IMG/VR virus record: IMGVR_UViG_3300029953_000007
Reading direction: 5' to 3' (one strand)
DNA: 57,601 nucleotides
DNA from: an uncultured virus (IMG/VR IMGVR_UViG_3300029953_000007)
Lineage: Duplodnaviria; Heunggongvirae; Uroviricota; Caudoviricetes
This document shows positions 2,263 through 32,544 of the stretch, in pieces. Made by a program: the position numbers and the translations under genes. Below the pieces are notes generated by a model. It was not told the DNA's origin and ran no database searches. It worked only from the letters and a program-made list of their open reading frames with translations. Position 1 is the first letter of the stretch. Every line of letters begins with the position of its first letter.

Positions 2263-2305
2263 AAGCCATACAGTCCTTAATTGGATTGTATGGCTTATTT
2301 TTTTT
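2263..2305 (+). terminator. Intrinsic terminator at the convergence of the + lysis genes and the - virion operon
   Basis: Hairpin AAGCCATACAGTCC-TTAATT-GGATTGTATGGCTT followed by a T-run on +; a short T-run on - suggests it may act in both directions. Confidence 0.85.
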
Positions 2306-5300
2306 AATGAATTGTACTTAAACCATTAATAGTCCTATAGATACTTAAATTCTTTAAAATAGCATCAGGACTTTTAGAACCACTAGCAACTTGCCAAGTA
2401 TCAGTTAGAACTTTTTGACTCCATGCTATAGACGAAAGAGGGTTATCAGGCCCTGAGACTGCCGTAACTGTAGAACAAATAAAGAAATCTCGTGATGAGT
2501 TACGAAGAGCACTTACTGCTCTATATCCAAGTGGATTATCCTTAGCCATATTAGGTTCACTAAATGCAGCTATTATAGACATTATAACTCCAAGTACAAG
2601 TGTATCACCAAGTAGATAAGCAAAATTAGCTTTTTGAGTTGCATTCATGTTATTCCACGATTTAACTACATTAAACTTATTAGTCTCTAGTTCATGATAC
2701 ATAGCAAATATTGTCTGTGCTATACCTTCCATATACTTACCTTTCCATTCCATAATAGGAAGACCATCTTCACCTATCTTAACTTTCCCTTCATCATCAA
2801 GAACTTCTTGAAAATGCCCTCTAGTCTGATTGTTAGTATCAGTTTCTGTAAACCAACGATTCTTCTTAACTGTTAACCAACCTTTAAATTGTAAAAATAT
2901 CCTACCAAAAGCGGTTTTATCAAAAGTACTTCTATCAACTGCATCATAATTACCGTGTATATCATTAGCAAAAGTTCGCATAGCTGTAGCCTGACGACTT
3001 GTGTAAGCACGAGCTAAAGTACCATCACCTTCCTTAATACCTCCAGGTTCACTTTCTAATTCTTGTCTTATTACTTTATATAACGCTTCTTGCTTTTTAT
3101 ACTCTTCAGTTTTACGTGAATCAGGCATAGCTTTATTGTTCGTATAGAGACTAAATCTTTTATCAAGCTTTTCATTATAAACTAAACGATCATTTATCAT
3201 TTGATGAGCTGAGTCTTTACTTATCTGACCTGTACTATCAAGTGTGATAGTACCATCCTTAATAGCTTGCGAGTTAAATATAAGCATCCTATTATACCAT
3301 CCCGGAAATGTTGTAAACCACCTACCTATTCTAGATATAAAGTGAATACCTCCACCAACACCCTGTTGTGTTTGATGTACCATTTGACTTACATCCATAT
3401 GTGCTAGACCATAAATTTCATTAAGAGCATCACTAAAACCAGGAGAGACATATGTCATTTTGTTTTGATTCATTGTACCACCTACTATAGCATGAGCTTG
3501 TAAATAATCTTTTAATCCAAAATTAAACTCTGAATATTTATTTGCCATTAATGTAACAATATTAGCAAAGAAGCCAGTTGACATTTCTGTTGCTCCTGCA
3601 CCCCAATTAAGAAGCATAGTAGCATTAGAAGATATATTTCTTATTGTATTAGTAACAGCTGCTAATGTTTCTGATTCACCTGCTATAAGACTAGCACCAA
3701 AAAGTGTTGTTTGAATAAAGTCGTTTTGCCATTTAGTGACATTTGTAGTATCGTTATAACCGAGTACTGTACTAATCATACCTACATCTTTAAGAGCATT
3801 AAGTACCGGTAAATATTTATTATATTGTTCTTCTCTATGATGTGCCATCATATAAGTAGAAAATACTAGTTCTATATCAGTTTCAAAATCACCTTTTTTT
3901 GCTTCGTCTACTTTTTGTTGTCTTGTATCAAGATCTAAATCACTAATATTAAATCCATTAAACATTTCATTTTGAGTACGCATTGCATCTTTTGACTTTG
4001 TATCATTCTTAAGAAAATTATTAGGATTAAGTATATCACGATACACACCATCTATAAATTGACTTAGATTTCTACCTTTAAATGAAGAAAGTAAAGAAGC
4101 GTTTAAAAGAGGTATATTACGAGATTCCTCTGATAATAAAAAATTATCAACATAATCTTGATTTCTACCACTTTCTAACATTTTATTAGTACGTATAGTA
4201 TTAATTTGATTAAGAATAGTAGTTATAGTTTGTTTTTGGAAATCAGCTAAATTTGATTTAGGATCATTAACATCTTTAAATCTCATGTTATCTGTATCTA
4301 TAAGCTTTTCCCAAGCTGGATAGTTATAGCCTACAGCTTTAATTTGAAAAGTAGTAGAACTTTTAGTATAAAACTTATCTAAAGTATCACGCCATCCACC
4401 AGATTTATTAAGAAACTCCAAAAATGCAGAACGAGCATCACTCATTGCTCTATTAACAACTTGAACTGTAGCTGTTTGCAAAGGATGTTGTGCTAAATTA
4501 GGTGTTCCCATAAGAGTGTTGTTAGATCCTATAATATTACCTAACACAGCTACATCACGTTCATGCCATATATCCAATCTTTCTAATTCAATAAGAGATT
4601 GACCAGCTAACTCTAAACACCTTTCAATATCTCTATACTCTACAGCTCCTAATACTTTAGTATTGTTACCAACATAACCACGTAGCATTTCAGACATTTC
4701 ACCAAGTAGTTTTCTTCGTTCATTAATGTCTGCATATGTAAGATTACCTAATCTATCAAGTATACCTTTAGTCTTTGTAATATTACTTGTTATACTAGTC
4801 CACCTCTTATCAGTTAAAAGTTCTGACATACGAGTAATAAGAGCACGAGTTGGATCAAGTTGTTTAGGAAGCCAGTCATTCTTAGGTAAACCTAAGTTTG
4901 GATCAATTTGCTTTCTAAGTGCATTATACCATGTTTCAAGCTGTCCTAACATTTGCATCTTCTCATTACCTATAAGGTTACCTTCCATAATATTAATGGC
5001 TTTAATTGAACCTATATTTTTATCAATAAAACTACTTTTATTGTCTTTAATGAAACTATAGACTTTTAAAAGCTCAACATCACCATTTGTTACTTTATGA
5101 ATACCAACTATAGATTTAGCTTTAGTGTCAGATAGAAAATTACCAAGTACTGTAGTAGCACCTTTAACAACAAGTTCTGGTGCTGCATTAAGATCAGAAC
5201 TACTAAGAGCTATAAAATCAACTTCATTTGTTCCTGTGTGTTCTATTTGTAAGATATTAAGATCTGCTGCTGGATCACTTTTTACCACTTGCCATAATGG

Positions 5301-6755
5301 ATCATTTATATATTTATGAAGTAAAGATTTTGCTTTAAGTATTGTATCGTTATCAGCTTTAGTATTTTTAGTTGTAAAATTACTCCATTTTACATCTTCA
5401 TAACCACCACCATCCTGTATTACCTTTTTAGCGTCATTAATGAATGTTCCCATCCTTTCTGGGAGTGTAGAGTTTTCATTTTCCCAATCTTTAAGAACTC
5501 TTGCTATCTCAGCTTTAATTTCATTAACAGGTAGTTCCTTACTAATTGGGTAACTAGTATTATTAGCATTGTATGGATGATAATACCATAATTTAGCAGT
5601 TGGGGACTTACTATGTGCAAGCATATTATCATATTCGTCATCCACTGACTTACTACCCTGTACTGTTTTTTTCTGTTCAAAGTTAAATGTCTCTTTCATA
5701 AACTTATGGACATTCGCATTATCAACTATACCTCTTGTGTCAACTGTATAAGGCATTATCTTCTTAACATTCTGCATTTCAGGATCAGTTTCCCTAAATT
5801 GACGATTGGAGTCTTGTCCTATATCAAAGTCATAAATAGTATTTGTATTGTAATCAATATCTTTAAGAAGAACTGGAAGTATATGAGTACTTTGTACATC
5901 ATAACCTGCACGTCGTTGTATCTGACGATAAAACATAAGTTGATAATTGTTACTCTTTATTTTATCTTTACCCCATTCATTCTCATTCTTTATTGAAGTC
6001 TTGTAATCATAGATATGTTGTTTACCTAATTCATCAACTACAACTAGATCCATAGTTCCTGCTATTTTAGCTTTTATATCAAATGTTCTAATTTCAGTTG
6101 CATATAAAGCATTAGGATATTTTAGATCTAAACTAGCTTTAAACTTCTTAAGTTCATCAATGTATTTATTAAGTACGTGACTAGTTAAACCTGTTAATTC
6201 AGGGAATAATTGTATAATATCCCTACTTTCTGTGATGTTACCATTAAAGAACTGTTGAGCTATTGTATGCCAAGAAGTACCAAGTAATGTTTGAGTTTGC
6301 CAAGATTTTATTTGTTTCTGTAGAATATCTAAAGCTTGTTGTTGAGTATACCTAGGAGTACCATCAGGGTTAACTGCTTTCATCATATCTGCATATGCTT
6401 TAGCTTGCCAATTCTCTAAGTTAAATGGCCTTATTATCTCCATTCCAAAACGTTTTTCACTCTCTTCTTTACTTAAGATTTTAGTTACAGGTGTTAGTGA
6501 TACTACCTTTCCCGTTTCTCTATCAATTACACTATAACTATGATCTTCGTCTTTATAGTTAACAAGATTAGAACGTTCTCTTAGTTCTTGATATATCTGT
6601 TGTTGATAACTTCTATCGTTACTAAATAACACTTTATCTGATAATAATTGAGAACTAAGTGTTCTTCTATTTTCACGTAAAAATGAATTTAACTCCTCTT
6701 CAGAGTTAAATTCATGTAACTGTCCGTTTAATTTTATTCTAAATGCGCAATCCAT
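2304..6755 (-). CDS. Giant virion cargo protein (~1483 aa) with N-terminal PD-(D/E)XK nuclease domain and C-terminal hydrophobic segment
   Basis: GTSWH..EIRT..AGTMDLVVVDELGKQHIYDYKTS..YQLMFY (RecB/Cas4-like). ATG 6755 (MDCAF) follows the upstream stop by 2 nt. Hydrophobic FAYLLGDTLVLGVIMSIIAAF near the C-terminus. Confidence 0.8.
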   Translation of the reverse strand: MDCAFRIKLNGQLHEFNSEEELNSFLRENRRTLSSQLLSDKVLFSNDRSYQQQIYQELRERSNLVNYKDEDHSYSVIDRETGKVVSLTPVTKILSKEESEKRFGMEIIRPFNLENWQAKAYADMMKAVNPDGTPRYTQQQALDILQKQIKSWQTQTLLGTSWHTIAQQFFNGNITESRDIIQLFPELTGLTSHVLNKYIDELKKFKASLDLKYPNALYATEIRTFDIKAKIAGTMDLVVVDELGKQHIYDYKTSIKNENEWGKDKIKSNNYQLMFYRQIQRRAGYDVQSTHILPVLLKDIDYNTNTIYDFDIGQDSNRQFRETDPEMQNVKKIMPYTVDTRGIVDNANVHKFMKETFNFEQKKTVQGSKSVDDEYDNMLAHSKSPTAKLWYYHPYNANNTSYPISKELPVNEIKAEIARVLKDWENENSTLPERMGTFINDAKKVIQDGGGYEDVKWSNFTTKNTKADNDTILKAKSLLHKYINDPLWQVVKSDPAADLNILQIEHTGTNEVDFIALSSSDLNAAPELVVKGATTVLGNFLSDTKAKSIVGIHKVTNGDVELLKVYSFIKDNKSSFIDKNIGSIKAINIMEGNLIGNEKMQMLGQLETWYNALRKQIDPNLGLPKNDWLPKQLDPTRALITRMSELLTDKRWTSITSNITKTKGILDRLGNLTYADINERRKLLGEMSEMLRGYVGNNTKVLGAVEYRDIERCLELAGQSLIELERLDIWHERDVAVLGNIIGSNNTLMGTPNLAQHPLQTATVQVVNRAMSDARSAFLEFLNKSGGWRDTLDKFYTKSSTTFQIKAVGYNYPAWEKLIDTDNMRFKDVNDPKSNLADFQKQTITTILNQINTIRTNKMLESGRNQDYVDNFLLSEESRNIPLLNASLLSSFKGRNLSQFIDGVYRDILNPNNFLKNDTKSKDAMRTQNEMFNGFNISDLDLDTRQQKVDEAKKGDFETDIELVFSTYMMAHHREEQYNKYLPVLNALKDVGMISTVLGYNDTTNVTKWQNDFIQTTLFGASLIAGESETLAAVTNTIRNISSNATMLLNWGAGATEMSTGFFANIVTLMANKYSEFNFGLKDYLQAHAIVGGTMNQNKMTYVSPGFSDALNEIYGLAHMDVSQMVHQTQQGVGGGIHFISRIGRWFTTFPGWYNRMLIFNSQAIKDGTITLDSTGQISKDSAHQMINDRLVYNEKLDKRFSLYTNNKAMPDSRKTEEYKKQEALYKVIRQELESEPGGIKEGDGTLARAYTSRQATAMRTFANDIHGNYDAVDRSTFDKTAFGRIFLQFKGWLTVKKNRWFTETDTNNQTRGHFQEVLDDEGKVKIGEDGLPIMEWKGKYMEGIAQTIFAMYHELETNKFNVVKSWNNMNATQKANFAYLLGDTLVLGVIMSIIAAFSEPNMAKDNPLGYRAVSALRNSSRDFFICSTVTAVSGPDNPLSSIAWSQKVLTDTWQVASGSKSPDAILKNLSIYRTINGLSTIH

Positions 6756-11648: not shown

Positions 11649-11672
11649 AGGAGAGAGTTTAAACTCTCTCCT
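11649..11672. terminator. Perfect 24-bp palindrome between the RNAP and zincin genes; possible weak terminator or processing hairpin
   Basis: AGGAGAGAGTTT/AAACTCTCTCCT, followed by only a short T-run on the minus strand. Confidence 0.6.
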
Positions 11673-11676: not shown

Positions 11677-14600
11677 TTAGCAGTCATAATTTTTGTCTTT
11701 ATCAAACTTTTCAGTGACACCATTATGTGTTATTTGTATATCTGTAGTATCACTAAGTCGTGACAAGAAATTGTGTATATTATCAGTAGCGAGTTTCCAA
11801 TAGTTAAATGCTTCATTTTGATCAGGTCTTAATTCAACTGATTTTTTAACAAATGGATTATAATTAAGACTATTAGATAATTCAAAATTTCCATCTTTTA
11901 ATGGCATAGTAGTCGTAGATTCATTTATATTTTCCTCTTGAGATTGTCCATTAACTCTAATTACAACTCTTGTACCAGGAACTTCTAGTTGTTTCCACCT
12001 ATCAATATACATATAGTTACGTGGTATCTTAGCAGCTTCTTCAGTATTATCATCGTTATTGTCGTCACCATTATTATCGTTATAATCATATGAATGATTA
12101 TCTAAATTAACACCACCATCTACATTACCTGTTTCTTCATTACTATAGTCTTCAGGTTGTTCATTATAAAAGTCATCAAAATCATCACGTCTTGCTAAAG
12201 GTAATCTATGAGTAGTTCCAACTTCAAAATAATAAGCAAGATTCCGTAAATCGAATGGGATACCTGCAATACTTAATTTATAAAAGTTTTCACTTTCTGT
12301 ACCTACTGTATCAGCTTCATTAACGAAAAACTTTTGTGGAGTACCTAAATTAAGTTCTACATCACTAGACTTTCCTATTTTACCTTTAAGTTCAAATAAA
12401 CGAGAATAGACATTTGGATCTTTATTATCAGCCCACATAACATCACCTAGTAACTTCGCATAACTATTTTTAGTTATATTATTCTTATTAAGTATTAGAT
12501 TATACCAAAAGAGAGCGTTAAAGATATTATTACCATTTAAATCTGTATATTTATTATCATATACTTCTTTAAGACCTGATACATAAGCATCACGAAAAGG
12601 ACCTTGTTCTACATTTGTTTTCACATTTGTAGTATCCATTTGAAGTTTCATAAAATCAACTTTATTAAATAATAAAGAATCTTGTTTATTATCAAGTCGT
12701 AAGTCTTGTGTAAAAGGATTACCCTTAAGTATTGAATTCTCCTGTATATTACGTAAGAAGTCAGTTTGCATCCAGTTTATAAACTCTTTACGACCTTCTT
12801 TAGTAGTTAAAGTAACATCACGACCTTTTATATAGAAGATAGGTTTTTCATCATTATTACTTGAGTTATTATCTTCTGATTTGAGAAAAGTATGTATAAT
12901 ATTAGCTTCAACAAATTTCTCAACTTCATTAAAATCCTGTTCTTTAATATTACTTGTAGGCCCTATATAACCCATATCACGTAACTTATCAACAAAATGA
13001 TACATACTATCAATTCTATACGAAGATTCACGTAATATAGTATTAGCAGAGTTAAATGCACTTAATTGTTTAGCGTAATGTTCATTAGTTGCTAAAATAT
13101 TTAAAGGATTAAAGTTAAGACCTAAAGCTCTAAATAAAGGTGACGTCTGATTAATATGATTTTGATGATATGAACCATTATTAGCTAAACTGTCTAAAAA
13201 GTCCTTAAAGTTAAAGGTAGGTTGATACTTATTAGTAATATACATACCATTAATTTTATCTTGTAAACGATTAGCGAAGTTATATAAGTCCCAACTATTA
13301 GTTTTTATACCTTGATTGATACTTAGATAACCAGCAAGTAGTGTAGCAGTTTGTGCAGGTTTAAAGAATAATTCTTTAAATCTATTAATTTCCTCAATAT
13401 CATAGATGTTACCTGTATTTAAATCTGTAATAAAACCTCTATTTAAACGTAATTTATAATTAGTTTCAAGAGCGTTTATAGCAATAGGTTTTAATCTTAA
13501 TAAAGCTTCTGATTTACCATCATACATTGCTTGTTCAACTTTATTAAGAAGATCACTTATCCTATTTTCAGTTGTATTTTTATCATAGATGTTACTACTT
13601 GCATTACGAATTAACATATCAGTAAGTGGTGATACCATATTATCAACTGACTCTTCAAATGACTTACTTAAAAGAGCTCTTGAAGGATAAATAGTCATAA
13701 CTGCTGGTGTAGCGTTTAATTTACCTAAATCAAGTTCTTTAGCATTATCTGTTGCAGAAGATAAAAGTTGAGAATAAAAATCAGCAGAGTCAACATCAAA
13801 AGATGATGCTATCTTAGCATGACTAAGTCTCTTATCTGCCTCAAACTTATCTGTATCGTAATTATAATGTAAAGTAACAATAGGACTATCTTCATTCTCA
13901 AACTTTTCACTAAAGATATGATAATTTACATTAGGTAAAGTTATATAAGGACCACCTATATTATTTATTTTAACATTAATCTCATGTTTTATATCTTCAA
14001 TCCTTTGTCGTAATATTTGAATAGCAGTTTCTAATTGCTCTTTCTTATGCGGACCTATGTAAAGATCATCAACACTATGAATAGCGTTAAGATGATAGTT
14101 ATAGTTCTCTAACTTACCTTCATAAGCTTTCTGTTTATCAAATAAATTACTCACTTCTCGAAGAGCACTATTAGTTGAGTATTGAATAGCAGATAAGTTC
14201 TTCATTTGAGAAGCCATTACACTAATACCAGTCTTACCAACCATATTATTATACCTTGCTCTTGCAATTGCAGCTGGATTTTCTTTACGATCGTTATTAG
14301 CAATTTCTGCTTTATTAGTTCTACTTGAAAATTGTTTTATAGTATCAGTACTAACACCATTAGCTAAATATAAGAAGTTAGAAGGATTCTCAATAACTTG
14401 ATTCGTAGTTGATACTGCAAAATTCTTAACACCATTTAAAGCTGTTGGAGCTTGTTCATATTCTAATAACTTCTGTACTATTGCTTGATGTTTCTCTCCA
14501 TCTAATCTATAATCTTTATCAAGTAGGGAGTATATACCGTTTAATACGTAAGGATTATTAAGATCTAAATGTGATCCAGACTCATCTCCACCAAACTTAA

Positions 14601-17600
14601 TTAACTTAGATGGATCTACAATATCACCAGTTGGAGTAGTTTCAGCCGTAAAGTCACTTATAGTCCTTTTAGAAGGAATTGGTAATTTTAAGCTCTCTAG
14701 TAAAGATTCTTTACTACTATAATCAAATGCTGGATGCCAACCTGTTAGAATGCCATTATTATCAATTGAGTGATATATAACGTTCTGTTTGTCGATGTCA
14801 AACGAATTGTTGCGTTGTAATCGTTTCCATTACAACTCTCATACTTTCATATGAGGCCGGACTATATCATCATTCTTACGAATGCCTTGCACTTCGATGT
14901 CACTTGACACCTACTCTACTCCATTACGTTAGCCTTAACGCTGTTTCGATAGTCTCTGAGGCGAAAATCCGTCTTTCAGGATAATCTGCCTGCTGATTGC
15001 CATATAATGTAGAATTTTCAAACATTCAAGCTTACTATTACTAGTTACTTTGTAGTTTCTACACCTTCATGGGTTTCCAGCATATCACAAGGTTTTAAGC
15101 GGACTTTGACTTCTTAGTTAATCCGCTCCACTCAGTTTTATAACTGAGTTTGGTACATGCATATGATTTCCTTCTGCAAAACCTACAATCTTCATACCTT
15201 GAAAGGATTGAAAGTGCTGTCCTGGAACACGTGTGCCTATCAATTTATCAAGATAAACTTGCCACGAAGTAAACATTTTCTGTGCTCTATCTTCTAAACC
15301 AATTACTGCTTTATTATATGCAGCTTGTCTATCCTTATCAAAGATTAAAATATTATAAGTATCTTTAATATTACCACTATCTGTACTAAGTAATTGACGA
15401 CCTAAACCATTATTTAAATTTTGAATTAAAGGATTATCTTGTATTTGATATTTATTATTTAAGAAGATATGAAGTTCATTATTAGTATTACTTACAGTCA
15501 TTCCTGTAGGTACTTGAAACAATCTATCACCTGAATCGTTAGTAAACCACTTAGTGCTTTTACCATTAGTGAAATAAACACCTACATTTGGATGTTCTTC
15601 TATACTAATACTATTAGGACCTTCTGAGCCAGTATGTAAGAATATCTTTCTACCACTTTGTGATATTATAACGCCATCAGCATCAGTTTTAAAATAATCA
15701 AGTGTTTTAAGTAGTCGTTTCTTAATTAAGTCTTTAGTTATTGAACCTACAGTATCACCTTCTTGAAGTAAGAAGTTTTGTCTTGCTACTATTGGAGCAA
15801 TACATTCAGCCCTTGATACTTCTACTTTAGCATTTTGTGTCTTATGAGCATTTTCAAATAGATCAGGATTCTGAAGAGATTGTGGTATATAAGATACTTG
15901 ACCATTAGGTCCAATATAACCATTACTAGCTTCATCTAAGAATTTCTGTAATCTACCAGTATAAAGTAAACCTACATTATTCAGTTTATCAAGATATTCG
16001 TGTTCTTTAGCTATTAATAACTGTTTAACTCCTTCTGCTGTTTTATCACGTTCTAATCGCTTTATTTTACCATCACGATACTTCTTACTTTGACTAAAGT
16101 TTTCATAAGAGAATTTATAAGGATCTCCTACTGGTGATTGTTGAGGTTTTATATCATCTATACTTTGCTCTTTATCATCACGTTTAATACTTGTTTTTAA
16201 TATCCCTTGTAACTCTTTAACATAATTATCAAGTACATGTGCAATCTCAGGATGCTTTAGTTTATTAGATTCGTTTAATATGTCACTAAGTGCTCTAGCT
16301 TGAGAAACTCTTGTATTAGCAAACTGATCAGTTAAAGTTTTACCTTTAGATTTATCACGTAACTCTTTGATTAGAGTAGGGTTTTGTTTAGCCCATTCAT
16401 CCCATAAAGGTTTATAACCTTTAGAATATGAATAATCTTCCTGTTCCTGTGAAGTTTTTAATGAAGGATTATAAACTATAGAATCTTTAGAAGGAGGTCT
16501 ACCTTTACCTGATCTTTTAATATCAGTTTGATATACACTTTCTATAGTTCTACCACCTACATCTTTACCATCTATTATTGTTTTAGGTTTAAACTTAGCA
16601 GTTAAAGCACTAAATCTTGCATCACCTTTAGAAGATACTTCATAATTATTATCACTACGTTGAGACCAACCAGATAACTCATTATCACTCTCCCTTATAG
16701 TACGTAATTCCTCAAGATCATTAGAAAACTGTTTATGTTTAGTTTGAAGTTCAGCAATTTTATCCTTATCACTTAATTGAATGTAAGAACTATCATCAAG
16801 TTGCTTTTTATATTCATCAACCTTACTTCTTATAAGGTCTAATGCTCTAGCTTCAGGTATTAACTGTTGTTCACTATCATCGTCATAACTAAGAGCTTGT
16901 TTAGTACCATCAGCATAATTTAATGTTACTTGTTGTCCTTTAAGATTACGAGGTTCAGTGTATTGATGTGTTTGAGCATGTTTCCTTATTTTTTCTGCAT
17001 TATCTAGAGCATTTCTATCGTCATTAAGAGATTTAATTTGATTAGGGTGATCTACTACATAATGTGTTTCACCTGGAGTATAACCTGCAGTTATTTTAGT
17101 AGGATCTTGTATATTAAGATAAGCTTCATGTACATCACCACTATCTCGTAGATCTGTAAGCTCTTTTAATGCCTTTTCAGTACTTTGTTTCTCTTGAGGA
17201 GATAGATTAGTTTTTAATTTCTCTTCATACTCATGTATTAGTTGTATGTATTGACTCTTAGTTAAATCAGGATGTTCTCCAGCAGAATAAGCTTGTGCAG
17301 ATTCTCTTGAAGAAGTAAACCATGTAGGGAGGTCATTAAACTTATCAAATTTATTAGGTGATCCATGATATACAAGTAAAGGTTTGCCTTCCTTATCAAC
17401 TACTTTAGAACCATTAAACCATTCTTTAAACTCTGGTGTGTTAGTAGGATCTATATTATGATGTTCTATCAAATGCTCATTAAGAGCTTTATAATCAGCA
17501 AATTCAGCAGGTTGAAGAACTCTTGTCTCTCCTGGTTCTAACTTAATAGTAGTGTAACCACCTTCATCAGTCTTAACTGGCATATAACCACCTTGTACTT

Positions 17601-20600
17601 CTCTAACTTGCATAAATTCGGAAGCTGGATGTAGAACTGCAAATAAACCATCAAACTTAGTACGAATACCTGTTTTAGTAAGATAGTTAGTTAATTCTGC
17701 AATAGCTGAATGAAAGATTTGAGGATCGTCAAAAGGCATGTCTTTACTATTAAACATATTAACAATCAAACCTTCAAGAGTAAACTCATCTTTATCATCC
17801 TTTGCTACTTTATTCTGCATTATATTATGAAAAATATCAAGTAGTTTATCTCTATTCTGTTCATACCACTTACCAGGTGTTAACTTGTTACCATTAGAGT
17901 CTTTACTACCATCTGGAGGTTGAGTATTAAGAGCTCTTACAAGTTCAGGAATATTATGTTGTTCTTGGTTTAGTATATAAGTAAGCTCTTGATCAACTAT
18001 ATTTCCAATAGCTCTATACATTTGCTGTACTTTCCCAAGACTCTTAGCGTTAAATATAAGACCATTAAGCATTTGAGTTGGTGTAGTTACAACTGTATTA
18101 TCAGTTTCGTGAAAAGCTGATAGCTGTATACCTGCATTAAAGTTAGAAACTTGATGAGTTATTAAACGAGTAACTCCTGGTATTCCTGGATCTTCTTTAC
18201 CCTGTAAGAAGTCAGAACGCTTTTTCAAGTGAACTGTTTCAATATTATTCATATTAAACTGTCCAACCTTTTGAGCTCCTGCAAATGTAATGCGATCGAT
18301 GTTCTTACCTTTAAACCTCTGATAAGGTCGTGAAAGTTGACTTTCTCCTTTATTAGCATACTCTACTAAGTCTTGAAGATTATCTTTATATTGATTTAAT
18401 ATGGTTATAAACTCTTTAGGGTCTTTAGTCTTTATATCGTGTTGTCCTATTTCTAAAGCTAATTGACTCTCGTTAATAGGTTGTTTAGTATATTTATCAA
18501 TAAGATTAATATGTGAACTAACTAATCCGTTATCATTAAACAGTTGTTTATAAGCTTGATAGCCACGTTTTACATTATCATTACCACTGACATAACTTTC
18601 TGGTATTATAGTTTCACCTTTATTACCGATATAACTTTCATATTCAAGTAACTTTTCAGCTGATTTATAATTTCCAGTAAGATAAAGTTTAGTATCACCA
18701 TCTCTATAATGAAATTGAGTTTCTAAATCTGTATGTTCTACTGAATCAATACCACCTAAGATGTGCCATAAGTCAAACATTGTATTAATTTGCATTGGCT
18801 TAGATACTGGTTTATCAGGTGCAATTGACATATTACGTGTCGTAACTATATACTTAGACTTACCATCAATATCTTTAGCTAAGAATGTAATAGAATCTAA
18901 CTTATGAAGTGTGCCATATAAACCTGTCTCAAAGTCTATACCACGTTTGTAATAATAAACATCATTGTGTGTACTTAAATTAACACCATCTTTCCAAGAT
19001 TTAGTTATATCGACATTTGATATATCAGTAGCATAAAGTTGTTTATGAAGTTCCATTAAGTCTACATTTGAACCTATAGTTTGACGTATTAAGTCATTAG
19101 TCATGGTAAAGTCAGCAAATTTAGTTATACCAAAATGTGCTGTTGTAGGATCATAATGAGATATGAATGGTTTATGAGTTGTACCACCATTACCATTAAA
19201 TTTACCATTAAGAGAATTCCATGTCTTAAGACATTGAGTCATGGTCTTAAGTGAAGCACCATCCCAATCAACTACTTGAGAACTATCACCAAGTATACCT
19301 TTAAACATGGAAGTCATATCATCAACAAATGCTGTACGAGTATGGTCTTCAACTCCAGTTTCAAGACCTAATGAAAAAGGACGTATAGTAGCTGTAAAAC
19401 AAACATTACGTTTAATATTAGTTAACCATGATGTATTTTCATTATTACCTTTATAGAATGATGAATCTCCTACACTTGCGTGCATTAAATTCTGTTCGAG
19501 AAGGTTATGATCCCAAAAATACTTTATAATAGCTGGGTGAATATCACTAAACTTCTTGGCTTCTATGTTACTGCTAGTAATAAACATATTAGCTTTATTA
19601 CCAAACTCACCACCTAATTTATGATAAAGTCTAGTAATTGTTTCTCTAGCTAATGGATCAAAAGTAAATCCAATCTCACGTAAGTCATTCGCAAAGTTAA
19701 CTAACTGTTTATTATATTTTACTTTAAAACTTTCAGATGTTTTATTAGGATTACCTTCATAGTGAGAGATGTTATCTATTAATTCACCTTTAATTTCAAG
19801 TCTAGTTTTAGGGCCAAAACTCTTTGTGTCATTTATATAATGAACCCAGTTGGTGAGTACAACTCCTGCTTTATTAGCATAAAATCTAGCTGCATTTAGA
19901 TCTTTAAGCCCATGTTCAAAGGTTCCTGTTTTCCAAAAACCATCTTTATGAAAGTCATTAAGAGCGATAAGTTGTTTACTAATACTACCTTTTGATTTTA
20001 TATTACTTTCAAATACAGAACCATGACCTGAAACACGATAAACTTGTTCCCAAGTATCAAGGATACTTTGTCCTTGTGCTCTATAATACTGTCCATTAGT
20101 CTTATATAATAAGTCCATTGACTGTTCATATGATGGAGCACGATTATTATCATCAACAAAAAGTTTAACTCTACCTTGTGAAGGTATTAAAACTTCATTG
20201 CCAAATTCAGCTAGTGGTTGATTACTCTTATCAGCAGGTACGAATAAATTAAAAGTTGGACGAATATGACCACCATCTATACCTTGTTGTAACATGCTTA
20301 AATAACCTAAGTTTATATCATAATGTAAAGTTTCAAGTGGAGTTTGACTTCCTACTGGCTTTACAGTAGCACCTACTTTAGTTGCTCCTCTAAGAGGAAA
20401 ACCTTTTAAGAAGTTAGCATCATTAAGAATAATATTATTATGTAATGGTGATTTATCAATGTCAGGTCGTATTGCAGAGTTTAATGTTCTTCTATGAGCA
20501 GTAAAATTTTGTTGTAATGCAGCAGCATATGTATAATTAGTAAATGCAGCAGATGAAGTACCATCAACTGTAGAAACAACTGATTTACGTTGGTTACCTG

Positions 20601-22785
20601 TTGCATTATTTTCTGCTGTAACTATTAATTTACCTATATCTGTAGCATTGATATTATTAAGTTCAAATTTATAGTTTGAAGGATCACTAAATGGGAACTT
20701 AGCACCTTCCTTTTTTATAGCATCATTAATTGGTTTATAGTTTGTCTCTATGTCACCACCTTTTTTACGTTGTTTTTCTTGTTCAGTACGAAGAAAGGTT
20801 TGAAATTCAGGATCATTTAATTTAGATTTAGCTTGTACTATATCTAAAGCATCTTTAATATAAGTTAGAAAAGGAGATGCTACAGGTTCATCATTTCTAC
20901 TAAGAGATTGAACTTCCTGCCAAAATTCAGCATGACGTTTGTCATTCTTATAATCAAAACCAAATAAGTCTTGAGATAGTTGTTGAATAGTATCAATATC
21001 TACTATTTGATTATTAGTATTCTTTAATACGTAATCTATACCATTTTGTCCTGTGTAGTTAACTGTAGATGGTTTACCCTTTTCATTTATAAAAGATATA
21101 TTCCACTTCTTTAAGAAGTTTTGTAAATCTTCATTGCTCATATTAATATGATCATTAATGAAACGAGTACTAGTAAAACCTACACTGCTTTTATTATTTG
21201 CCTCAGCTGTTTTTAATCTTATATCACCATTAGGAGCTTCAACTGCTTCAGCTATTCTATTTGGAGACATTTCACTTATAGGTTTAGTTATAAGTTGCAT
21301 TAGAGTTTGATCTCTATTGTCTTTTATAGTCTCGTAAAATGAAGCGACAGTGGTATTATCATTCTTAGCTGGAGTATTAAGTACATCTCCTTCACGTTCA
21401 AAAAACTTTTTATATAATGTATATAATGTATTTTTTTCAGTATAACCTATACCTTGTGCTCCAATCCTATCCATTATTAACTGTCTAAGTGAATTAGTTA
21501 CATCATTTCTATCAATTTGATTGAAATAAGGAGCCATGATAGAAGTTACAAGTGTAGGGTAAAGATATTTACCAGTTTCATCACCTGTGTTATAATTTAA
21601 GATAGCTGTGTTATTAATTACAGTTTTATAAAAAGGTGAAGATAGCTCTACTCCATTCTGAATCTTTTCATCCCACGAGACATTAAACGCATCAACAGAT
21701 AATGCGTCTTTAGTTTCATACTTACGTAAGATAGGATCAAAGTCAGGATTAAATTTATTAACTGAAATAGTACCTTCTCCATAATAATTAAAGAGTTTAT
21801 TAAAATCACTAAGTATTACATAATCACTAAAGTTATCAATAATTTCTTTAAGATTTGAATCTAATGTATCTTTAAATTTCTCTGTTATTTCAGATAGTAG
21901 GTTAGGTTCAGTGAGTGATCGTTGTTCTCCATTATATTTTATAATAGTGGCTCTATTAGCTATATCTTTAAGAGTTTTATCAAAGTTAGCTTTCTTAAGA
22001 AGATCATCACGATAAATAAGAGGGACTGTTTCACCTTTAACAGTTTCCTCAATACCAAGTCTACCTATAAGGTCTTTAAATAAACTAATACGATAGTTTT
22101 TTATATTTGTATCTACATCATTTGTATATCCTTCTTTAGCTGGACCTTGTAGTTGATTTACTAATACTCTATTATTAACATCTATAAAGGCTGTTTCAAT
22201 TAATCCTTTAGTAATAAACTTAGAAACTGTTATCTTCTCCATACTTGAAGAACCCTTAAACCTATCTAAACGATAAGCTTTTAAGTTTTGATAATTATTC
22301 TCATGTATATATTCACTAAGACTTGTGTCAGTAGCTATATCTAAAGGAGTTGCATCATTAAGTTTAGAAGCTTCTACTACTTTTTGAGTAGTAGAAGCAA
22401 CATCACCTTGTTCTTTTTTATCTATATCTGCTAAAAGTAAACTTACTATATCAAATTTAGGAAGTATAGGTCTAACAGTAAGGTTAAATTTACGCATATT
22501 ACCTTTTAATTGTGCAATTGCTAGATTTATCGCTTCACTGTTTAACTCATTATTTATAGTTTCTTTTATGTCACTATAATCATAATCTTTGTTAAGTTTA
22601 CCTTCTATAATTGCAGGTAATATATCTTCATTAAGTTCTTTAACTAAAGAGTCTATAGTCGGTAATTGATCTAGATTACCTCTATAATAATTTCTTAAAT
22701 TACTCGCAAAGTCACTACCACGTAGTAAATCATTAAGTACTCCTTGGTTTGTTTCTTCGTTTAAATTAGTTAGACATCTAGCCAT
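11677..22785 (-). CDS. Virion-packaged crAss-like single-chain DNA-dependent RNA polymerase, join(complement(15121..22785),complement(11677..14802)), 3596 aa after splicing
   Basis: Exon 1 ends RVPGQHFQSF..LSGAD. Exon 2 begins FDIDKQNVIY and, by manual translation, is open through NNMVGKTGIS into the 855-aa ORF. Splicing restores GADFDIDK (DxDxD Mg-binding motif of two-barrel RNAPs; DFDID in crAss-like phages). Confidence 0.93.
14803..15120 (-). mobile_element. Group I self-splicing intron (318 nt, IA-like, no ORF) in the RNAP catalytic motif
   Basis: P1: exon AGCGGAU pairs with IGS GUCCGCU with U.G at the splice site. P10: GUCAAA pairs with 3' exon UUUGAC. P=AUAUGCUGGAAA, Q=AAUCAGCAGG, R=CUCAGAGACUA, S=AUGAUAUAGUCC. 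P3 CCUUGU/GCAAGG, P7 GACUA/UAGUC, P8 and P9 hairpins, terminal G at 14803. Confidence 0.96.
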
Positions 22786-28700: not shown

Positions 28701-31700
28701 GAGTATAAATATTATTAGTATTAAAGGTAGTAAAGAGATTATCTCTCTCACCTTCTGTTAAATCACGACCAATAGTTTTCTGTAAATGATTTATATTAAT
28801 AAACCGTTGTAAGCCTTCAGTTGAAAGGTAACGCTCCCACATCTCATAAGGTAAACCTTTTTGAATAGAAGTGTTAATATAATCTATTAAACCATCAATT
28901 CTACTAAATTCAGAGATAATGGGGTTATTCTTGTCAATATTACCATCTGCATACTGTTCAAAGGTATTTATAACTGGCCCATTATCAAACTCACCAGTAG
29001 GTTTAGGTTCATCAAGCTTATCAAGTTGATAAGCTATTTGACGTTGTTCATTAAGTTTAGTAGGATCAATATTCTGTGCATGAAATGCTAAGTCTTTAAG
29101 TACTTTAAGAGTACTGTAGTTAGATTCTGGTGACTTATTAGTTTGTAAATCTTTAAATTCAGGTGTTTCAGTAAACTCTTTAAAGTTTTTATCACCTACT
29201 AATTTATTAACATACTCTTTAATTAATTCGTTAGATAAATCTTTATTAAGTGCTCCATTAACAGTAATTCTAAACTGATTAAGTTTATTAAAACGTTCTA
29301 ATAGTTGTGGTTCTGTTAAACCTTCAGGTATTCCAGGGCCATTAGCAAGTTCACCAAGTTTTCCATTAGCTTCATGAGATGCAGTTAAACTAATTGCTTT
29401 TTTAACATGATCGTAAATATAGTCAGGAACATATTTGACACCTGCTAACTTACTCATATAATCTTGAGTTAGAGCATGAGTTTCACTATCTTCTAAAAAT
29501 CCTTGTTCATTTGTTAAAAGAGATTCAATGTGTTGTTTACCTTGTTCTTCTGTTCCTACTTTTGCTAAACCTATTGTAGGTTCTTGATTAAAGTAAGGAA
29601 GTGGCATTTTCATTACATACTTCTTAAGATGTTCTACAGACTCACGAAAGGTTTGTATCTCACGATAATAACCTTTAGATTCCATTTTCTCATCAAAGTG
29701 TTTGTATTCTTGATAAGCTTTCTGTAAAGATGGCATTAAACCTGTATCAGGATCAAGCACATACTTTTTATACATATCATCAACTTTAGTTTGTTGAACT
29801 GAATTTAACTGCTTATAAGGTCTACCTGCCTCTCTTTGTGCTATTGTCTCTCTATTATCAACTCCAAATGGTTCATTAATGTCCATACGAATATTAAATA
29901 AACCTTGAGTAAAGAACTCATCGATCGAATCGTTACCTTGTAAATGTTTAAGTTGCTTTAGTGCTAAAGATAGTTCTGCCTTTTTATTTATAAGAGATTC
30001 ATCATCACCGTTTTTATCTAATTTATCATAACTTCTTATATCTGTACCTAACTTAAAGACATTCTTCATAGCGTGATTAAGTTGAAGATATAAGTCAGTA
30101 TCGGTTTTAGTATCGATTATACCATTATAAAAATCATTCTTAGCAGCAGCAGTCTTATCAGGATCTTGCATATTATAAGCAGATTTTAGACTCTCTAACA
30201 TTTTAATACCAGCTAGAACTTTCTCACCTATTGCTTGATTTTGTGATAATGGGTTTTCTTTACTAACTGGTTTAAATACACCAGGAATTACATCACCATT
30301 TTCATCTGTCATAGGTGTCATCGATAGTTTAGTACTACCAAACTGACCTTTCTTTAACATATCTGCATGAGCAGCATATAACTCTTGTATATGACCAGCA
30401 TTAACATAATCAATAACTTTATTAGCACTATATGTAGGTGCAGGATGAGAACCAGTAGCTATACCTGCTAAGTGAAACATAGCACCACCAATAGCTCCAC
30501 TAAATCCTTCACTTATAAGATCTTTAGCAAAAGAGATTGGATTAATGTCAAATTGTTTATTCTCTTGACTTGAAGTTAAACCAGCAGATGATAATCCATT
30601 ATATACAACTTGCAAACCGTCAGAAATTGCTTTCTGACTAGTCATGTCTACAGCATTTGCTATTATTGCACCTTTAAATTCATTAGTATTTAGGCCTTTT
30701 AAGTACTTAACGACCTTATCTCCTAACTGTTTACCAACAGCAAGATTAAACATTGCTTTCTCTTTAATTGTAGATTGACCAAGTACTTTACTAGTTTTAG
30801 TAGTTATATCATCGAGAGCAGGGGCTTGAGTTTGAAGTGCATTATCAGCTACTTTAGCAGCATCATCAGGAGACAATGAAGACCATCCTTCATTAATAGT
30901 ATCACGTGCATTTTCAAGTGCAGGTTTAGCAGCTTCATTAGCTTCTTCTATACTACCACCCATTGCTTTATTTACCCAACGACCAAAACCACTACTAAAG
31001 AATGGAATAAGAGCAGCTGTATAACCTAAATATAAGAAACCTTTGTCACGTTCATCAATACCTCTTTGATCAGCTAAATTACTTATAGAAGCGGCAGTTG
31101 AAGCAGCCATATAAGCAGTAGAGAAGTGTTGAGCGTAAGTGGAATACTTAACGAATAAGTTTTGATTTTGCTGTAAAGCCTGTATAGACTTCATTACACC
31201 CTCTGGGTTACCACCATATTTAGCTACATAAGCAGATAAATCAACATCAGAGCCAAGACCAAGTGCATTTGTAGCAGCATCACCTACACTAAGCATACCA
31301 TCCGTAGCTACACCTAATTCTTTAGCCATTTTCCATTTAGTAAATTCTTGTGGCCATTTAACTAAGTTATTCTGTGACTTTAAAATATAAAGAGCATCAA
31401 CAGCTTGATTTAGTAAGTTTTCAGGTGAGTACCAAGTATCTTTACCATATTGAGACACACCACCTTTTAATTGACCAGTATAACCTTGTAATGTATTAGC
31501 CCACTTATACAAACTATCTTGTTTCGCTGAATCACCATTAATAATACCGTCAACTGCCTTTGCTATTGAAGCTCCACTATCGACTAAACCTTGTGCAATA
31601 ACATAAGCAGAGTAAGCCTCACCCACACCAGGAATTAACATTGGTAGATATTGAACTGCTGCTTTTATAATAGAACTAACTGCACCTTTTTGTATCTGAT

Positions 31701-32544
31701 TACTTTTCATAAAGTCAAATTGACTATAGAAAGAGCCTTCTTTAGTTAAAGTATCTTGACGAGATAACACTTGCTTTCCTGAAGGATCGCGACCACTAAG
31801 TGTTTCATAAAATGGAAGTCCTTGAGCATTTAATTTGTCTTCACCTTGCTTATGAATTATTTTTCCTTTATCATCACGAATATCAGAATCATACTGTGCA
31901 AGGACTAAAGGTTCACTTAAGAAACCATATAAGTTAAAAAGACCTGTATCTTCTGGTTTATAATTAAGTTGTTTACCTGTAGTAGGATCTACTACATTTT
32001 GAGTAGTAGCGACTTGTTGTATACTAAGTTTTGGATCAGACCACTTATTAAATTCAGTTAAACCGTAAAATGAACCTTGAGCAGTCTTAAGATTAGTGAA
32101 AGGGTCTTTACTAACAAGTGATACTTGTACTGGTTGTCTACGTATATTCATACCTAAATACCTTGTCATAGAGTCATCACTTACTATATTAGTAGCTGCA
32201 TTAGTTACAGATGGTGCTGATTGTATATAGTTGTTATAAGACTGTACAGCTTTCTGATAGTATGAGTTAAAAGCATTATTATCAAACTTACCATCTTGTC
32301 CAGTAAATAACTTTTGTATCTTAGAAGTACTTTTATAAAAGTCAGGAGTACTTAATGTTGTATTATCAGGATCAACTCCCATTGAAGTTAAATCTGAAGG
32401 ACTCTTTCCACCTCCTGTTTGTAATTGTACAGCTATCCAGTCAAAACCAGATGAGTCAGGTTGTGATGTAGCAGGTATAGGTGTATATTGAGGTACTGAA
32501 GTTTGTGTTGCAACTGGTGTTGCATTATCCGGCATTGCGTTCAT
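22786..32544 (-). CDS. Giant virion cargo protein (3252 aa) with central superfamily-1 helicase-like P-loop domain and N-terminal hydrophobic segments
   Basis: Walker A GSSGTGKTT (~27499-27525), Walker B ATDEFTH, motif III VLGDANQ, SLRSG, motif V EVQGGEY, motif VI NTMLSRA (~26341). Confidence 0.82.
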   Translation of the reverse strand: MNAMPDNATPVATQTSVPQYTPIPATSQPDSSGFDWIAVQLQTGGGKSPSDLTSMGVDPDNTTLSTPDFYKSTSKIQKLFTGQDGKFDNNAFNSYYQKAVQSYNNYIQSAPSVTNAATNIVSDDSMTRYLGMNIRRQPVQVSLVSKDPFTNLKTAQGSFYGLTEFNKWSDPKLSIQQVATTQNVVDPTTGKQLNYKPEDTGLFNLYGFLSEPLVLAQYDSDIRDDKGKIIHKQGEDKLNAQGLPFYETLSGRDPSGKQVLSRQDTLTKEGSFYSQFDFMKSNQIQKGAVSSIIKAAVQYLPMLIPGVGEAYSAYVIAQGLVDSGASIAKAVDGIINGDSAKQDSLYKWANTLQGYTGQLKGGVSQYGKDTWYSPENLLNQAVDALYILKSQNNLVKWPQEFTKWKMAKELGVATDGMLSVGDAATNALGLGSDVDLSAYVAKYGGNPEGVMKSIQALQQNQNLFVKYSTYAQHFSTAYMAASTAASISNLADQRGIDERDKGFLYLGYTAALIPFFSSGFGRWVNKAMGGSIEEANEAAKPALENARDTINEGWSSLSPDDAAKVADNALQTQAPALDDITTKTSKVLGQSTIKEKAMFNLAVGKQLGDKVVKYLKGLNTNEFKGAIIANAVDMTSQKAISDGLQVVYNGLSSAGLTSSQENKQFDINPISFAKDLISEGFSGAIGGAMFHLAGIATGSHPAPTYSANKVIDYVNAGHIQELYAAHADMLKKGQFGSTKLSMTPMTDENGDVIPGVFKPVSKENPLSQNQAIGEKVLAGIKMLESLKSAYNMQDPDKTAAAKNDFYNGIIDTKTDTDLYLQLNHAMKNVFKLGTDIRSYDKLDKNGDDESLINKKAELSLALKQLKHLQGNDSIDEFFTQGLFNIRMDINEPFGVDNRETIAQREAGRPYKQLNSVQQTKVDDMYKKYVLDPDTGLMPSLQKAYQEYKHFDEKMESKGYYREIQTFRESVEHLKKYVMKMPLPYFNQEPTIGLAKVGTEEQGKQHIESLLTNEQGFLEDSETHALTQDYMSKLAGVKYVPDYIYDHVKKAISLTASHEANGKLGELANGPGIPEGLTEPQLLERFNKLNQFRITVNGALNKDLSNELIKEYVNKLVGDKNFKEFTETPEFKDLQTNKSPESNYSTLKVLKDLAFHAQNIDPTKLNEQRQIAYQLDKLDEPKPTGEFDNGPVINTFEQYADGNIDKNNPIISEFSRIDGLIDYINTSIQKGLPYEMWERYLSTEGLQRFININHLQKTIGRDLTEGERDNLFTTFNTNNIYTRLLTEGKYNLGNSDLNLHTINSIDDTNLRSAIDTVRNFNQTRIPSPLRGDNDHPESSKSILRDVYKTLNSEIENLDTVGTSNYLNADDSFTELLDTQINAIKRIGALLNAANTSNPIINDFRANHRGLLSDDLRDKVLTILDNDDLGTLGNELNRVYRQVNYLKDLNEFNKNNTIARLLREDGFELSAKVQSLNDLAQDPDILKLIPSLGALQADQDINNFVSSYKSASDDSKLTALSKFAKIEENIYQDVQNLTDDDKKVLVNKSFRPINSSAKDFYDNISGDEPLNDSHRTIYLATIFGSSTINFYANYAGKYDSDAEAFTNLNKTPYIPFAKQESAVRVANLVINGDPTIIRMFLNAYSYDGSTDIVSDFSSPKDGNTSFDSSNLVAILGSSGTGKTTAVLYSIMNMIPDEDSNVMLLTPKNRQFNTLRGTLINGGYEKRLDDRSSTVREFINNLNLKYKDGSKYDVTKNDEILNGVDIDKKETGNAKIDFYTKFDTQVFDKLDLYDNKKLKPEIANLFSKTRLFATDEFTHLNPIDLCLITNLINDYNKTDIVLQDPSKRSSIVVLGDANQMGFLKDDGTRRDYTNVATTIISQPLLTSLRSGWDLINNTLVDLQRRTMEVKEISGVDPAALTTSEIIQKYRDQHLQLFNYQGVDGNIGMKSIKVDGNLKASDLSFITDNKSKTFKDKDGNDIPVKGKDIVYIINSDIDIPRAQALLREALGANWEGLADIEIYKPEEVQGGEYKYTIIDAKPRLTPNDPKSNDYDYSLVRVHEFLNTMLSRATEATLLIEDPSITNYIGLDNVAKGKATNQKKITDQVIAQVKKNKQIVLAAILGEDYVPQGAKPGSKIDTSAVPPPKPIADLYSNSFPIELTQDPLNPKSPAAKINTGIDLENKINKAKVKDIVAYTTYSTKADFDLISSIPSVADDIDTLKTEDMKKSHIENIIQSLKYYIVKGPIISENNVALKANFEQYLKQYDYNSPIFYIEAAKKEGTNVQYGRSEDYWQDPKPDQFLFSLRVKLPSKTGEQPLDITLGLLNSFTNLENKFKAAQNNESKVPLTKDDTDVNTFIKHVRTWLISGDRNSSKQGVWEEGKWRSRDLSAREWRSISETWDGRYNVNDPKTPPVYPTLKDLKAKYPDYHISEPQVIVSLFKDENGKLIVDDAGDPIQDFRGKSVVFMSEYKELQKVKNDDLLNIYLKQLKLFGTKDFLSLDKDGKEAYIKSKPDRIQVDGQFTLPYKPNMVQMIRLDTPRDSFLGFRQKFLAAIHDQESGGNVFDLFEKFDMSPYVKDRLAKSLLTIKQFIESTPDNKQWFKEEVLDEVNKTLDTKIEELRTHVLNTYGETGDAFQDNDSFKTLMLDPLKPFKRGVDEFSEYLNDLLDLNDPHTIFRRKFDTDINKINSAHVPDKKNSNPVQASDLQITLTPDKRVDFNQSILDLNLLNLFNKTKNLNFAAAIDKALIEFTKFPQGETRFDNYRLDKVLKDGQLENLVIASRAALKGYQISNMLADVKSTGHEFIVPFRGIQQAAYNIDFAKLLSLHDSENLPITESEVSALHINTNQRLQLFDELGDKWLTSKFGDFNNDLRKLTNTNDQYNFLQGINDKIDSLNEIERVVPSNEILSPGTKTTYQVSPNGIVAIDTVESEVKRGLIEQQDEFSKLTHDQITLENVSFNKNKAVFKAKVGDSEFKVTYDAKTGNIDPQRLDTETWQEKLQRFFPDLKTSAEINQATTDILSKVVKDTSEQVNPSKLLTIDSMKDELGHRLYNLLTPEQTQVLLPDTKTTDKDYYSNLMDSYVDNFVKDGKNWYTKVSDMAKTVMDNNRDSALGLDTEEPDPIEAEVKEESKVDKLNLLKKDVNSADNKAIEEFKLEAGKLFNNIPKEQQTTLRDWIKNYQLRHRLAIANKIVTGREFSLEQLDLKKDFTKFTDKQLSDEFQDKIEQDPDLYEQYRVAFNKLTKYRVEKSSNNC

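Follow-up and report, generated by a model that had tools for sequence, protein, structure and literature searches.

In the cultured crAss-like phages crAss001 and phi14:2, giant consecutive proteins form a module that includes the RNA polymerase (RNAP): gp47, gp50 and gp49 of crAss001 are found in the virion and are injected (PMC10172136), and gp67, gp66 and gp65 of phi14:2 are likewise virion proteins (according to tandem mass spectrometry noted in the genome record and to a preprint) and are injected, the preprint also presenting a crystal structure of gp66. Here we examine the corresponding module of an uncultured member of the Caudoviricetes (IMG/VR record IMGVR_UViG_3300029953_000007), encoded on the minus strand of a 57,601-nucleotide (nt) stretch of DNA (the window), which sits within a 176,703-bp virus record that is 86% complete. 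It comprises a first protein of 3252 amino acids (aa), a putative RNAP, a 1625-aa zincin-like protein and a 1483-aa nuclease-like protein, and it has the same pattern of terminal cysteines as the two cultured modules. The window differs from these in having four members, with a separate gene for the zincin-like protein, and an intron in the RNAP gene. Given the synteny with crAss001 and phi14:2, the window proteins are probably packed in the particle and injected.

A covalent link between the ends of two cargo proteins has been described in a phage outside Crassvirales. In cyanopodophage A4, cryo-electron microscopy revealed that gp27 inserts its C-terminal helix into a cleft of gp26, where a disulfide between Cys1715 and Cys5 holds it (PMC12002296). 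Within the mature virion, gp27 and gp26 alternate in a pentameric ring, which contains this bond (PMC12002296). The two proteins are encoded by adjacent genes, belong to the ejection cargo of the capsid core and have the same cysteine signature as the window proteins: in the genome of Anabaena phage A-4L, the 1717-aa gp27 has its sole cysteine at position 1715 (..DNPCQF) and gp26 has its sole cysteine at position 5 (MSKHC). Several relatives of the window end in ..NPC, as gp27 does near its end. Phage A4, however, has one link only, within a T7-like pre-ejectosome ring and with no RNAP, and the available text of the paper makes neither a rule nor a chain of it.

Disulfides also occur in the crAss001 virion, where they are structural elements of the tail and portal vertex, in the gp57 dimer, the tail hubs and the ring proteins (PMC10172136); these too connect subunits, but at internal residues of shell and tail proteins and not at cargo termini. 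In Schitoviridae, the injected proteins, including the giant virion RNAP (N4 gp50 to gp52, DEV gp71 to gp73), are strongly depleted of cysteine (PMC11445570), as are the window proteins, and this scarcity has been ascribed to passage through the periplasm with its disulfide-forming enzymes (PMC11445570). We counted no cysteine at all in N4 gp50, gp51 and gp52. Whereas Schitoviridae lack terminal cysteines, crAss-like phages keep them at the facing ends, and by this analogy the retained residues stand out as selected against an N4-like background of depletion. In the full-text literature on crAss together with cysteine or disulfide, supplements and extended data aside, we found only the crAss001 structure and DEV papers and no such link in Crassvirales. 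In the available texts, without supplements, of the phi14:2 preprint, the N4 ejection paper, the epsilon-group paper and Yutin 2021 (PMC7886860), the terms "cysteine," "disulfide" and "Cys" are absent.

Cysteines at the facing ends of the cargo proteins

An earlier note on this DNA, made without database searches, had claimed that all six facing termini of the four proteins have a cysteine and that neither outer end does. Translation of the open reading frames (ORFs) bears this out, each of the six residues being either the last one or located at position 3 to 5, and the note's cysteine counts of 2, 5, 2 and 3 and its total of 9956 aa proved correct as well. Internal cysteines number 1, 3, 0 and 2 in gene order, that is, 6 in 9956 aa, and the cargo block as a whole contains 12 in 12,046 aa; the genome-wide frequency is 0.85% (403 of 47,460 aa). 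At this frequency, a cysteine is expected in a five-residue terminal window with p = 0.042, so that six of six corresponds to approximately 5e-9, and a chance origin of the pattern is excluded. Only 5 of the 154 ORFs of at least 100 aa in the genome end in cysteine, and 3 of these encode chain proteins. The other two are adjacent ORFs of 323 and 195 aa (..AISC and ..GYGNC), located outside the window at G000:C1:138078-139733.

The three junctions are of different types: at the first, stop and start abut; at the second, a 41-nt spacer with a hairpin intervenes; and at the third, codons overlap. We rejected translational coupling and a nucleotide signal as causes of the cysteines because the junctions differ in this way at the DNA level and, further, because the first gene is on the other strand in crAss001, DAC15 and IAS virus. 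The spacer hairpin, between the RNAP and 1625-aa genes, is an inverted repeat that looks like a terminator; this junction is therefore not translationally coupled, yet its cysteine pair is kept. In the segment following the N-terminal cysteine, described in the earlier note as beta-hairpin-like for two of the proteins, relatives maintain an alternating hydrophobic pattern with a glycine turn. The alignment of N termini of the zincin family (A6), with 11 to 20% identity, was too divergent for folding.

Conservation across Crassvirales

Beyond the 1625-aa protein itself, six homologues were found in the protein collection (26 to 64% identity). All seven sequences have a cysteine at position 3 to 5 and another as the last or third-last residue, and in four of the seven these two are the only ones. 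Megablast against the phage collection gave no match, and tblastn of the 1625-aa protein against the same collection gave one weak match. No stretch of alignment A2, which includes crAss001 gp49, was sufficiently conserved to serve as a query, and a search for the RNAP N terminus in five related records returned no match. A scan of viral contigs with a single protein found no relative and was repeated with alignment A3. Two scans of viral contigs yielded 24 and 80 loci; L110 was dropped, its last gene being missing, and the other 103 loci, grouped by 70% identity of their last proteins, formed 23 clusters. Wherever one ORF of at least 200 aa (called with ATG starts only) followed another, the boundary was scored for a cysteine in the last five residues upstream and in the first six downstream.

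Both cysteines were present at 46 of the 60 boundaries in the 23 cluster representatives. Twelve of the 60 flank ORF-bearing insertions inside the RNAP gene, which leaves 46 of 48 real protein boundaries with a pair by strict ORF calling, and the remaining two are explained. The exception in L105 is an artefact of the ATG-only rule, since a GTG start overlapping the previous stop restores M-S-N-C, while that in L104 reflects a broken middle gene, the first piece of which starts with MASC and the second of which ends in ..EEFCS. None of the 23 last proteins has a cysteine in its final 10 residues. Over all 103 loci, both cysteines were found at 219 of 256 boundaries. The N-terminal cysteine is at position 3 in 20 cases, 4 in 24, 5 in 1 and 6 in 2 (44 of 47 at position 3 or 4), and the C-terminal one is the last residue in 19, the second-last in 22 and the third-last in 7 (48 of 48 within the last three). 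The internal cysteine frequency in these related chain proteins is 0.23%. Some lineages have extra small chain members of 333 to 364 aa, mostly with only the two terminal cysteines.

The junction between the first protein and the RNAP was inspected in five further genomes, and the pair was present in all five. Their first proteins have no N-terminal cysteine and end in ..NTCN, ..GTYC, ..DCNK, ..SCTLKS and ..KPNC, and all five RNAPs start with M-x(1-3)-C. The terminal cysteines are kept down to about 20% identity and across Crassvirales families, with the C-terminal residue of one protein paired with the N-terminal residue of the next and the outer ends free. Judged by these comparisons of sequences, the terminal cysteine pairs are a real and strongly selected feature in all four Crassvirales families sampled.

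TAG is read as a sense codon in the gene block of L004 to L009, L074, L076, L078, L079, L106, L108, L109 and L111, and TGA in that of L075 and L077. In the window itself, the genes have open frames with the standard code.

Fission, fusion and rearrangement of the chain genes

Where a chain protein has been split, a new pair appears. In L001 to L003 and L032 to L034 the RNAP is divided into an upstream part ending in ..ENCNG and an 835-aa protein starting with MDKGC, and in alignments with the unbroken RNAPs of the window, L009, L010, L035 and L060 these parts match adjacent regions. In the continuous proteins the fission site corresponds to a linker of approximately 65 to 100 residues (280 in L010), which is free of cysteine in the window, L010 and L060.

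Where proteins have been fused, no pair is found at the fusion. The 4245-aa gp33 of crAss002 combines an RNAP with a gp49-like protein and has no cysteine between residues 2141 and 3118, a stretch spanning the inferred junction; the 4133-aa gp49 of cr127_1, a fusion of the RNAP and the last protein, has none after residue 2015; and gp059 of cr50_1, a fusion of the first protein and the RNAP, has none within several hundred residues of the junction. In cr4_1 gp26, a single cysteine is located near the inferred junction, without a partner. Each of these four phages has exactly one pair, at its single remaining boundary, although that of crAss002 requires the internal Met33 (M-S-C) as the start, 32 codons after the annotated one. 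As far as the genes compared here indicate, the number of pairs follows the number of proteins. The cysteines as relics of a polyprotein cleavage site were considered and rejected, given that the fusion zones of the fused proteins contain none.

The rule also holds where the first gene is on the opposite strand, namely in crAss001 (gp47, gp50, gp49), DAC15 and IAS virus. In crAss001, gp47 ends in ..LRCNS, which contains its only cysteine, and the next protein starts with MSKRC; in DAC15, gp078 ends in ..KECLE and is followed by MSKTC; in IAS virus, gp058 ends in ..YLRC and is followed by MSLYC. In phi14:2, g067 ends in ..NTIC, g066 (MAC..QECK) has only Cys3 and Cys2179 in 2180 aa, and g065 (MSC) has only Cys3. 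The Leptolyngbya phage Lbo-JY46 (L121, PP438436) encodes a 1552-aa protein whose sole cysteine is its last residue, followed by a 2748-aa protein whose sole cysteine is at position 4, and the rule consequently reaches beyond the phages classified as Crassvirales. This cyanophage is unclassified; it encodes a gp47-like protein and a domain resembling gp49.

A group I intron in the RNAP gene

The earlier note had treated the RNAP as spliced, and the sequence evidence supports this view. A narrow scan with the Rfam model RF00028 scored 64.6 bits (gathering score 50; E 2.5e-16; covering 14838-15143); a first Rfam scan of 2.5 kb, with E values up to 0.1, had missed the intron. A profile built from the uninterrupted genes of 15 relatives aligns exon 1 up to profile position 1390 and exon 2 from 1391, gap-free. 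Joining ..SGAD of exon 1 to FDIDK.. of exon 2 restores the catalytic D-F-D-x-D motif. Group I introns are preceded by a U at the 5' splice site and have G as their last base; exon 1 ends in ..GAT, the last base of the 5' exon being T, and the intron ends in ..TCG, its last base being G. On this evidence a group I intron, whose splicing is predicted, interrupts the RNAP gene, and the two sides of the break are not protein ends. No cysteine is present on either side of it, as expected for a break that does not create protein ends, and this fits the rule that the cysteines mark true ends. In three metatranscriptome runs, contigs cover parts of both exons, and none crosses the intron or shows an exon joint.

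Breaks inside the catalytic motif have been reported in some crAss-like groups by Yutin et al. (PMC7886860). Among our loci, ORF-bearing insertions within the RNAP gene occur in L007, L075, L079, L104 and L105, several of them at the motif site of the window intron; those of L079, L104 and L105 are larger and carry a 228- to 234-aa ORF where the RNAP ORF stops at ..LQGSDY. A 46-nt piece of the intron (window 15013-15058) was also found on a separate, deeper contig of DNA run X4, with small indels and unrelated flanks, which suggests that the intron core is repeated elsewhere in the community of this run.

Proposed head-to-tail disulfide links and their alternatives

We consider it rather probable, in view of the sequence pattern and of the analogy with phage A4, that head-to-tail disulfide links join the cargo proteins. 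This was the proposal of the earlier note, and it is supported in part: the comparative predictions of the note, on conservation, co-occurrence of the two cysteines and their behaviour where genes are split or fused, all came out as expected, and the A4 bond has the same signature. Its further claim that no such system is described falls, as one link has been published for phage A4 (PMC12002296). The C-terminal cysteine of protein n would bond to the cysteine at position 3 to 5 of protein n+1, linking the first protein, the RNAP, the zincin protein and the nuclease-like protein in this order, and the near-absence of cysteines elsewhere would prevent wrong links. The bonds would form once the particle is in an oxidizing milieu, and the cytoplasm of the host would reduce them, freeing the enzymes. 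Since both cysteines are located a few residues from the chain ends, the linked product would be a nearly linear thread able to pass a narrow tail channel. We infer the bond in the window phage, the order of the links and their function, which may include roles in stoichiometry, in ejection order and in release by reduction.

Several observations weigh against such links. The cytoplasm in which phage proteins are made is reducing, and the genome record, 86% complete as it is, shows neither a thioredoxin nor a glutaredoxin gene, so that oxidation would have to be spontaneous or host dependent; a search for an Erv-type sulfhydryl oxidase was uninformative, as it gave no match even in the controls. 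A disulfide joining these proteins has yet to be seen in a crAss-like phage, and those that the crAss001 paper describes in its available text are all structural (PMC10172136). The A4 precedent is an analogy, since the A4 and crAss proteins lack sequence similarity: profiles A1, A3, A4 and A5 and blastp against gp25 to gp29 of phage A-4L gave nothing better than E 0.009, with scores of at most 3 bits. N4 injects its RNAP with no cysteine in gp50 to gp52, so that a link is not needed for injection as such. Two exceptions in the pattern also count here, namely crAss001 gp50, whose C-terminal cysteine is nine residues from the end, and IAS virus gp056, which as deposited starts without a cysteine, at a site with ambiguous bases, though gp055 ends in ..LILCNGD. 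Lastly, with two cysteines per middle protein, self-cyclization would fit the counts equally well.

It is this last point that gives some appeal to an arrangement in which every middle protein, having one cysteine at each end, closes on itself from N-terminal to C-terminal cysteine, while the first and last proteins pair together or with another partner. We deem it very improbable. Two-protein architectures with one terminal cysteine in each protein (crAss002, cr127_1, cr4_1, cr50_1, Lbo-JY46 and phage A4) imply that the link must be between proteins, and fission places the new pair on ends that were adjacent in the unsplit chain. A link between proteins could still serve another purpose: instead of setting the ejection order or pulling one protein after another, the bonds would staple together a symmetric core, or pre-ejectosome, and so keep the packed cargo in its place within the capsid, as in phage A4. 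This we think unlikely, even though the authors of the A4 structure describe their bond as stabilizing the insertion of the helix into the cleft (PMC12002296) and crAss001 stabilizes its tail and portal vertex with disulfides (PMC10172136). A staple could sit anywhere in the interface, yet the cysteine is at position 3 to 6 or within the last three residues in 95 of 95 cases, which suits a thread, and crAss001 shows no ordered density for these proteins (PMC10172136).

Instead of a disulfide, the facing cysteines might form a shared binding site for a metal ion (Zn or Fe), to which carboxylates in their vicinity would also be ligands. Acidic or amide residues do often stand beside the C-terminal cysteine (..ENC, ..EEC, ..TCDE, ..ICE, ..KCE), and gut and peat habitats are largely anoxic. 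Each junction, however, offers two thiols only, with no conserved histidine or second cysteine, and the same signature is a disulfide in the A4 structure (PMC12002296), for which reasons metal binding appears improbable to us. We give hardly any credence to the idea that the links form only after ejection, in the oxidizing periplasm of the host, where they would contribute to the assembly of the trans-envelope channel or keep the RNAP at the site of entry. The lack of cysteine in ejection proteins has indeed been ascribed to the disulfide-forming enzymes of the periplasm (PMC11445570), but the A4 bond is already present in the mature virion (PMC12002296), and the proteins concerned are cytoplasmic enzymes, i.e., an RNAP and a nuclease-like protein.

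Organization of the locus and relation of its proteins to cultured phages

In the direction of the minus strand, the run of large genes encodes proteins of 1658, 615 and 3252 aa, a 2555-aa ORF, the break, an 855-aa ORF, and proteins of 1625 and 1483 aa; the spliced RNAP has 3596 aa. Virion structural genes are located upstream of this run and an endolysin gene downstream on the opposite strand. Table 1 lists the features. DNA runs X1 to X7, from several studies, hold window positions 13800-16200 nearly in full and are labelled as peat metagenome; the crAss-like phage of the window is therefore environmental, not one of the human gut.

Table 1. Features of the cargo gene run in the window (positions are those of the window)
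Feature	Position	Strand	Details
1658-aa and 615-aa proteins upstream of the chain	32549..39372	-	Cys-free
First chain member, 3252 aa	22786..32544	-	starts MNAMPDN.., ends ..KSSNNC; no N-terminal Cys
Cys3252, last residue of the 3252-aa protein	codon 22789-22791	-	only other Cys is 1823
RNAP exon 1, residues 1-2555	15121..22785	-	starts MARC, ends ..SGAD
ORF holding exon 1	15118-22785	-	ORF translation, 2555 aa
Cys4 of RNAP	codon 22774-22776	-	further exon 1 Cys at 1129, 1185, 2328
Group I intron, 318 nt	14803..15120	-	RF00028; splits the catalytic D-F-D-x-D motif
RNAP exon 2, 1041 residues	11677..14802	-	starts FDIDK.., ends ..KNYDC
Exon 2 ORF	11677-14244	-	translation; terminal Cys is its sole Cys
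RNAP C-terminal Cys, single Cys of exon 2	codon 11680-11682	-	
GC-rich inverted repeat, 22 nt	11650..11671	-	terminator-like; in the 41-nt spacer between the RNAP and 1625-aa genes
Third chain member, 1625 aa	6758..11635	-	starts MKSNC, ends ..LTQQC
Cys5 of the 1625-aa protein	codon 11621-11623	-	
Cys1625, last residue of the 1625-aa protein	codon 6761-6763	-	with Cys5 the sole two Cys
Last chain member; 1483 aa if it starts at MDC, 1486 aa if at MLIMDC (6764)	2304..6755	-	ends ..GLSTIH
Cys3 of the 1483-aa protein	codon 6747-6749	-	3 Cys in total; none C-terminal

The 3252-aa protein contains a weak P-loop or helicase-like stretch (Pfam AAA_19, E 6e-4, below the curated cut-off). It has no detectable similarity to crAss001 gp47, and a profile of five first proteins gave no match to gp47, g067, gp078, gp058 or gp32, so that only position and cysteine pattern agree. 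The 1658-aa and 615-aa proteins encoded upstream of it are candidate channel-forming cargo outside the chain, and their counterparts upstream in five related genomes have 0 to 2 cysteines.

The middle protein of the cultured modules has the motif GSDFDIDK at 1361 in phi14:2 g066 and GSDFDVDK at 1483 in crAss001 gp50, and the window has D-F-D-x-D likewise, split by the intron. Searched against 16 targets, a profile of the RNAPs of 15 relatives gave weak matches to crAss001 gp50 (1478-1702, domain E 1.2e-5) and crAss002 gp33 (1464-1523, 4.6e-6) and none to phi14:2 g066. An AlphaFold2 model of the RNAP core (alignment A4, seven sequences) reached a mean predicted local distance difference test score (pLDDT) of 38.9, too low for use in a fold search. 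The putative assignment as RNAP is based on the catalytic motif and on the weak profile matches to crAss001 gp50 and crAss002 gp33. Residues 1797-1923 of the protein (window 17017-17397, minus strand) match the ART-PolyVal ADP-ribosyltransferase domain (PF18760, E 6.8e-11), and residues 2042-2173 (window 16267-16662, minus strand) form a phrog_9995 domain with 35 to 42% identity to small proteins encoded by jumbo phages of the phiKZ type and by some N4-like phages.

The 1625-aa protein is zincin-like, with two HExxH motifs (residues 237 and 1464). In the 1483-aa protein, residues 52-278 match the phrog_298 exonuclease, the N-terminal part being PD-(D/E)XK nuclease-like, and Cys3 is invariant in alignments A3 and A5. 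It matches crAss001 gp49 in blastp (E 4.7e-8), and profile A3 matches gp49 (3.3e-8) and IAS virus gp057 (7.3e-13), while gp49 matches phi14:2 g065; these similarities make the last protein homologous to crAss001 gp49 and, by way of gp49, to phi14:2 gp65. Neither single sequences (the 1483-aa protein and RNAP exon 1) nor profiles (A3 and A4) had a meaningful match in the Protein Data Bank. Profile A3 of the last protein also matches the "first" protein of DAC15, gp078 (L115, E 2.4e-13), and a segment of IAS virus gp057 (L114), about 180 aa long, recurs in crAss001 gp47. In these two cases a domain has apparently shifted from one chain member to another.

Implications for cargo delivery

As far as the literature searched shows, the rule of terminal cysteine pairs in Crassvirales is new, a single bond of this kind being known from phage A4, outside the order (PMC12002296). 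The order and delivery of the internal proteins of podophages are an open question. For crAss001, extrusion order was proposed to be probably set by packing and by interactions of the cargo proteins, with further study needed (PMC10172136). As a tentative and somewhat doubtful extension of the disulfide links favoured above, we consider that the four proteins might exit the virion joined covalently into a single thread of about 10,000 residues, with the free N terminus of the first protein in front and every disulfide pulling the following protein through the tail, until reduction in the cytoplasm cuts the thread and activates the RNAP and its partners. Placement of the cysteines near the chain ends would then be an adaptation that keeps the joint thin enough for the channel, and the splitting and merging of genes would be neutral provided that a cysteine pair takes over from the lost peptide bond.

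The cysteine rule is testable in cultured phages: if it reflects real links, crAss001 gp47, gp50 and gp49 would form a linked product of about 694 kDa, separable by reductant. It would also offer annotation a marker that tells true protein ends from introns and recoded stops in genomes that are hard to annotate. For the phages themselves, such links would account for a fixed 1:1 stoichiometry of the RNAP and its partners and for the free splitting and fusing of these genes in evolution, and they would provide a redox switch for activating the injected polymerase.

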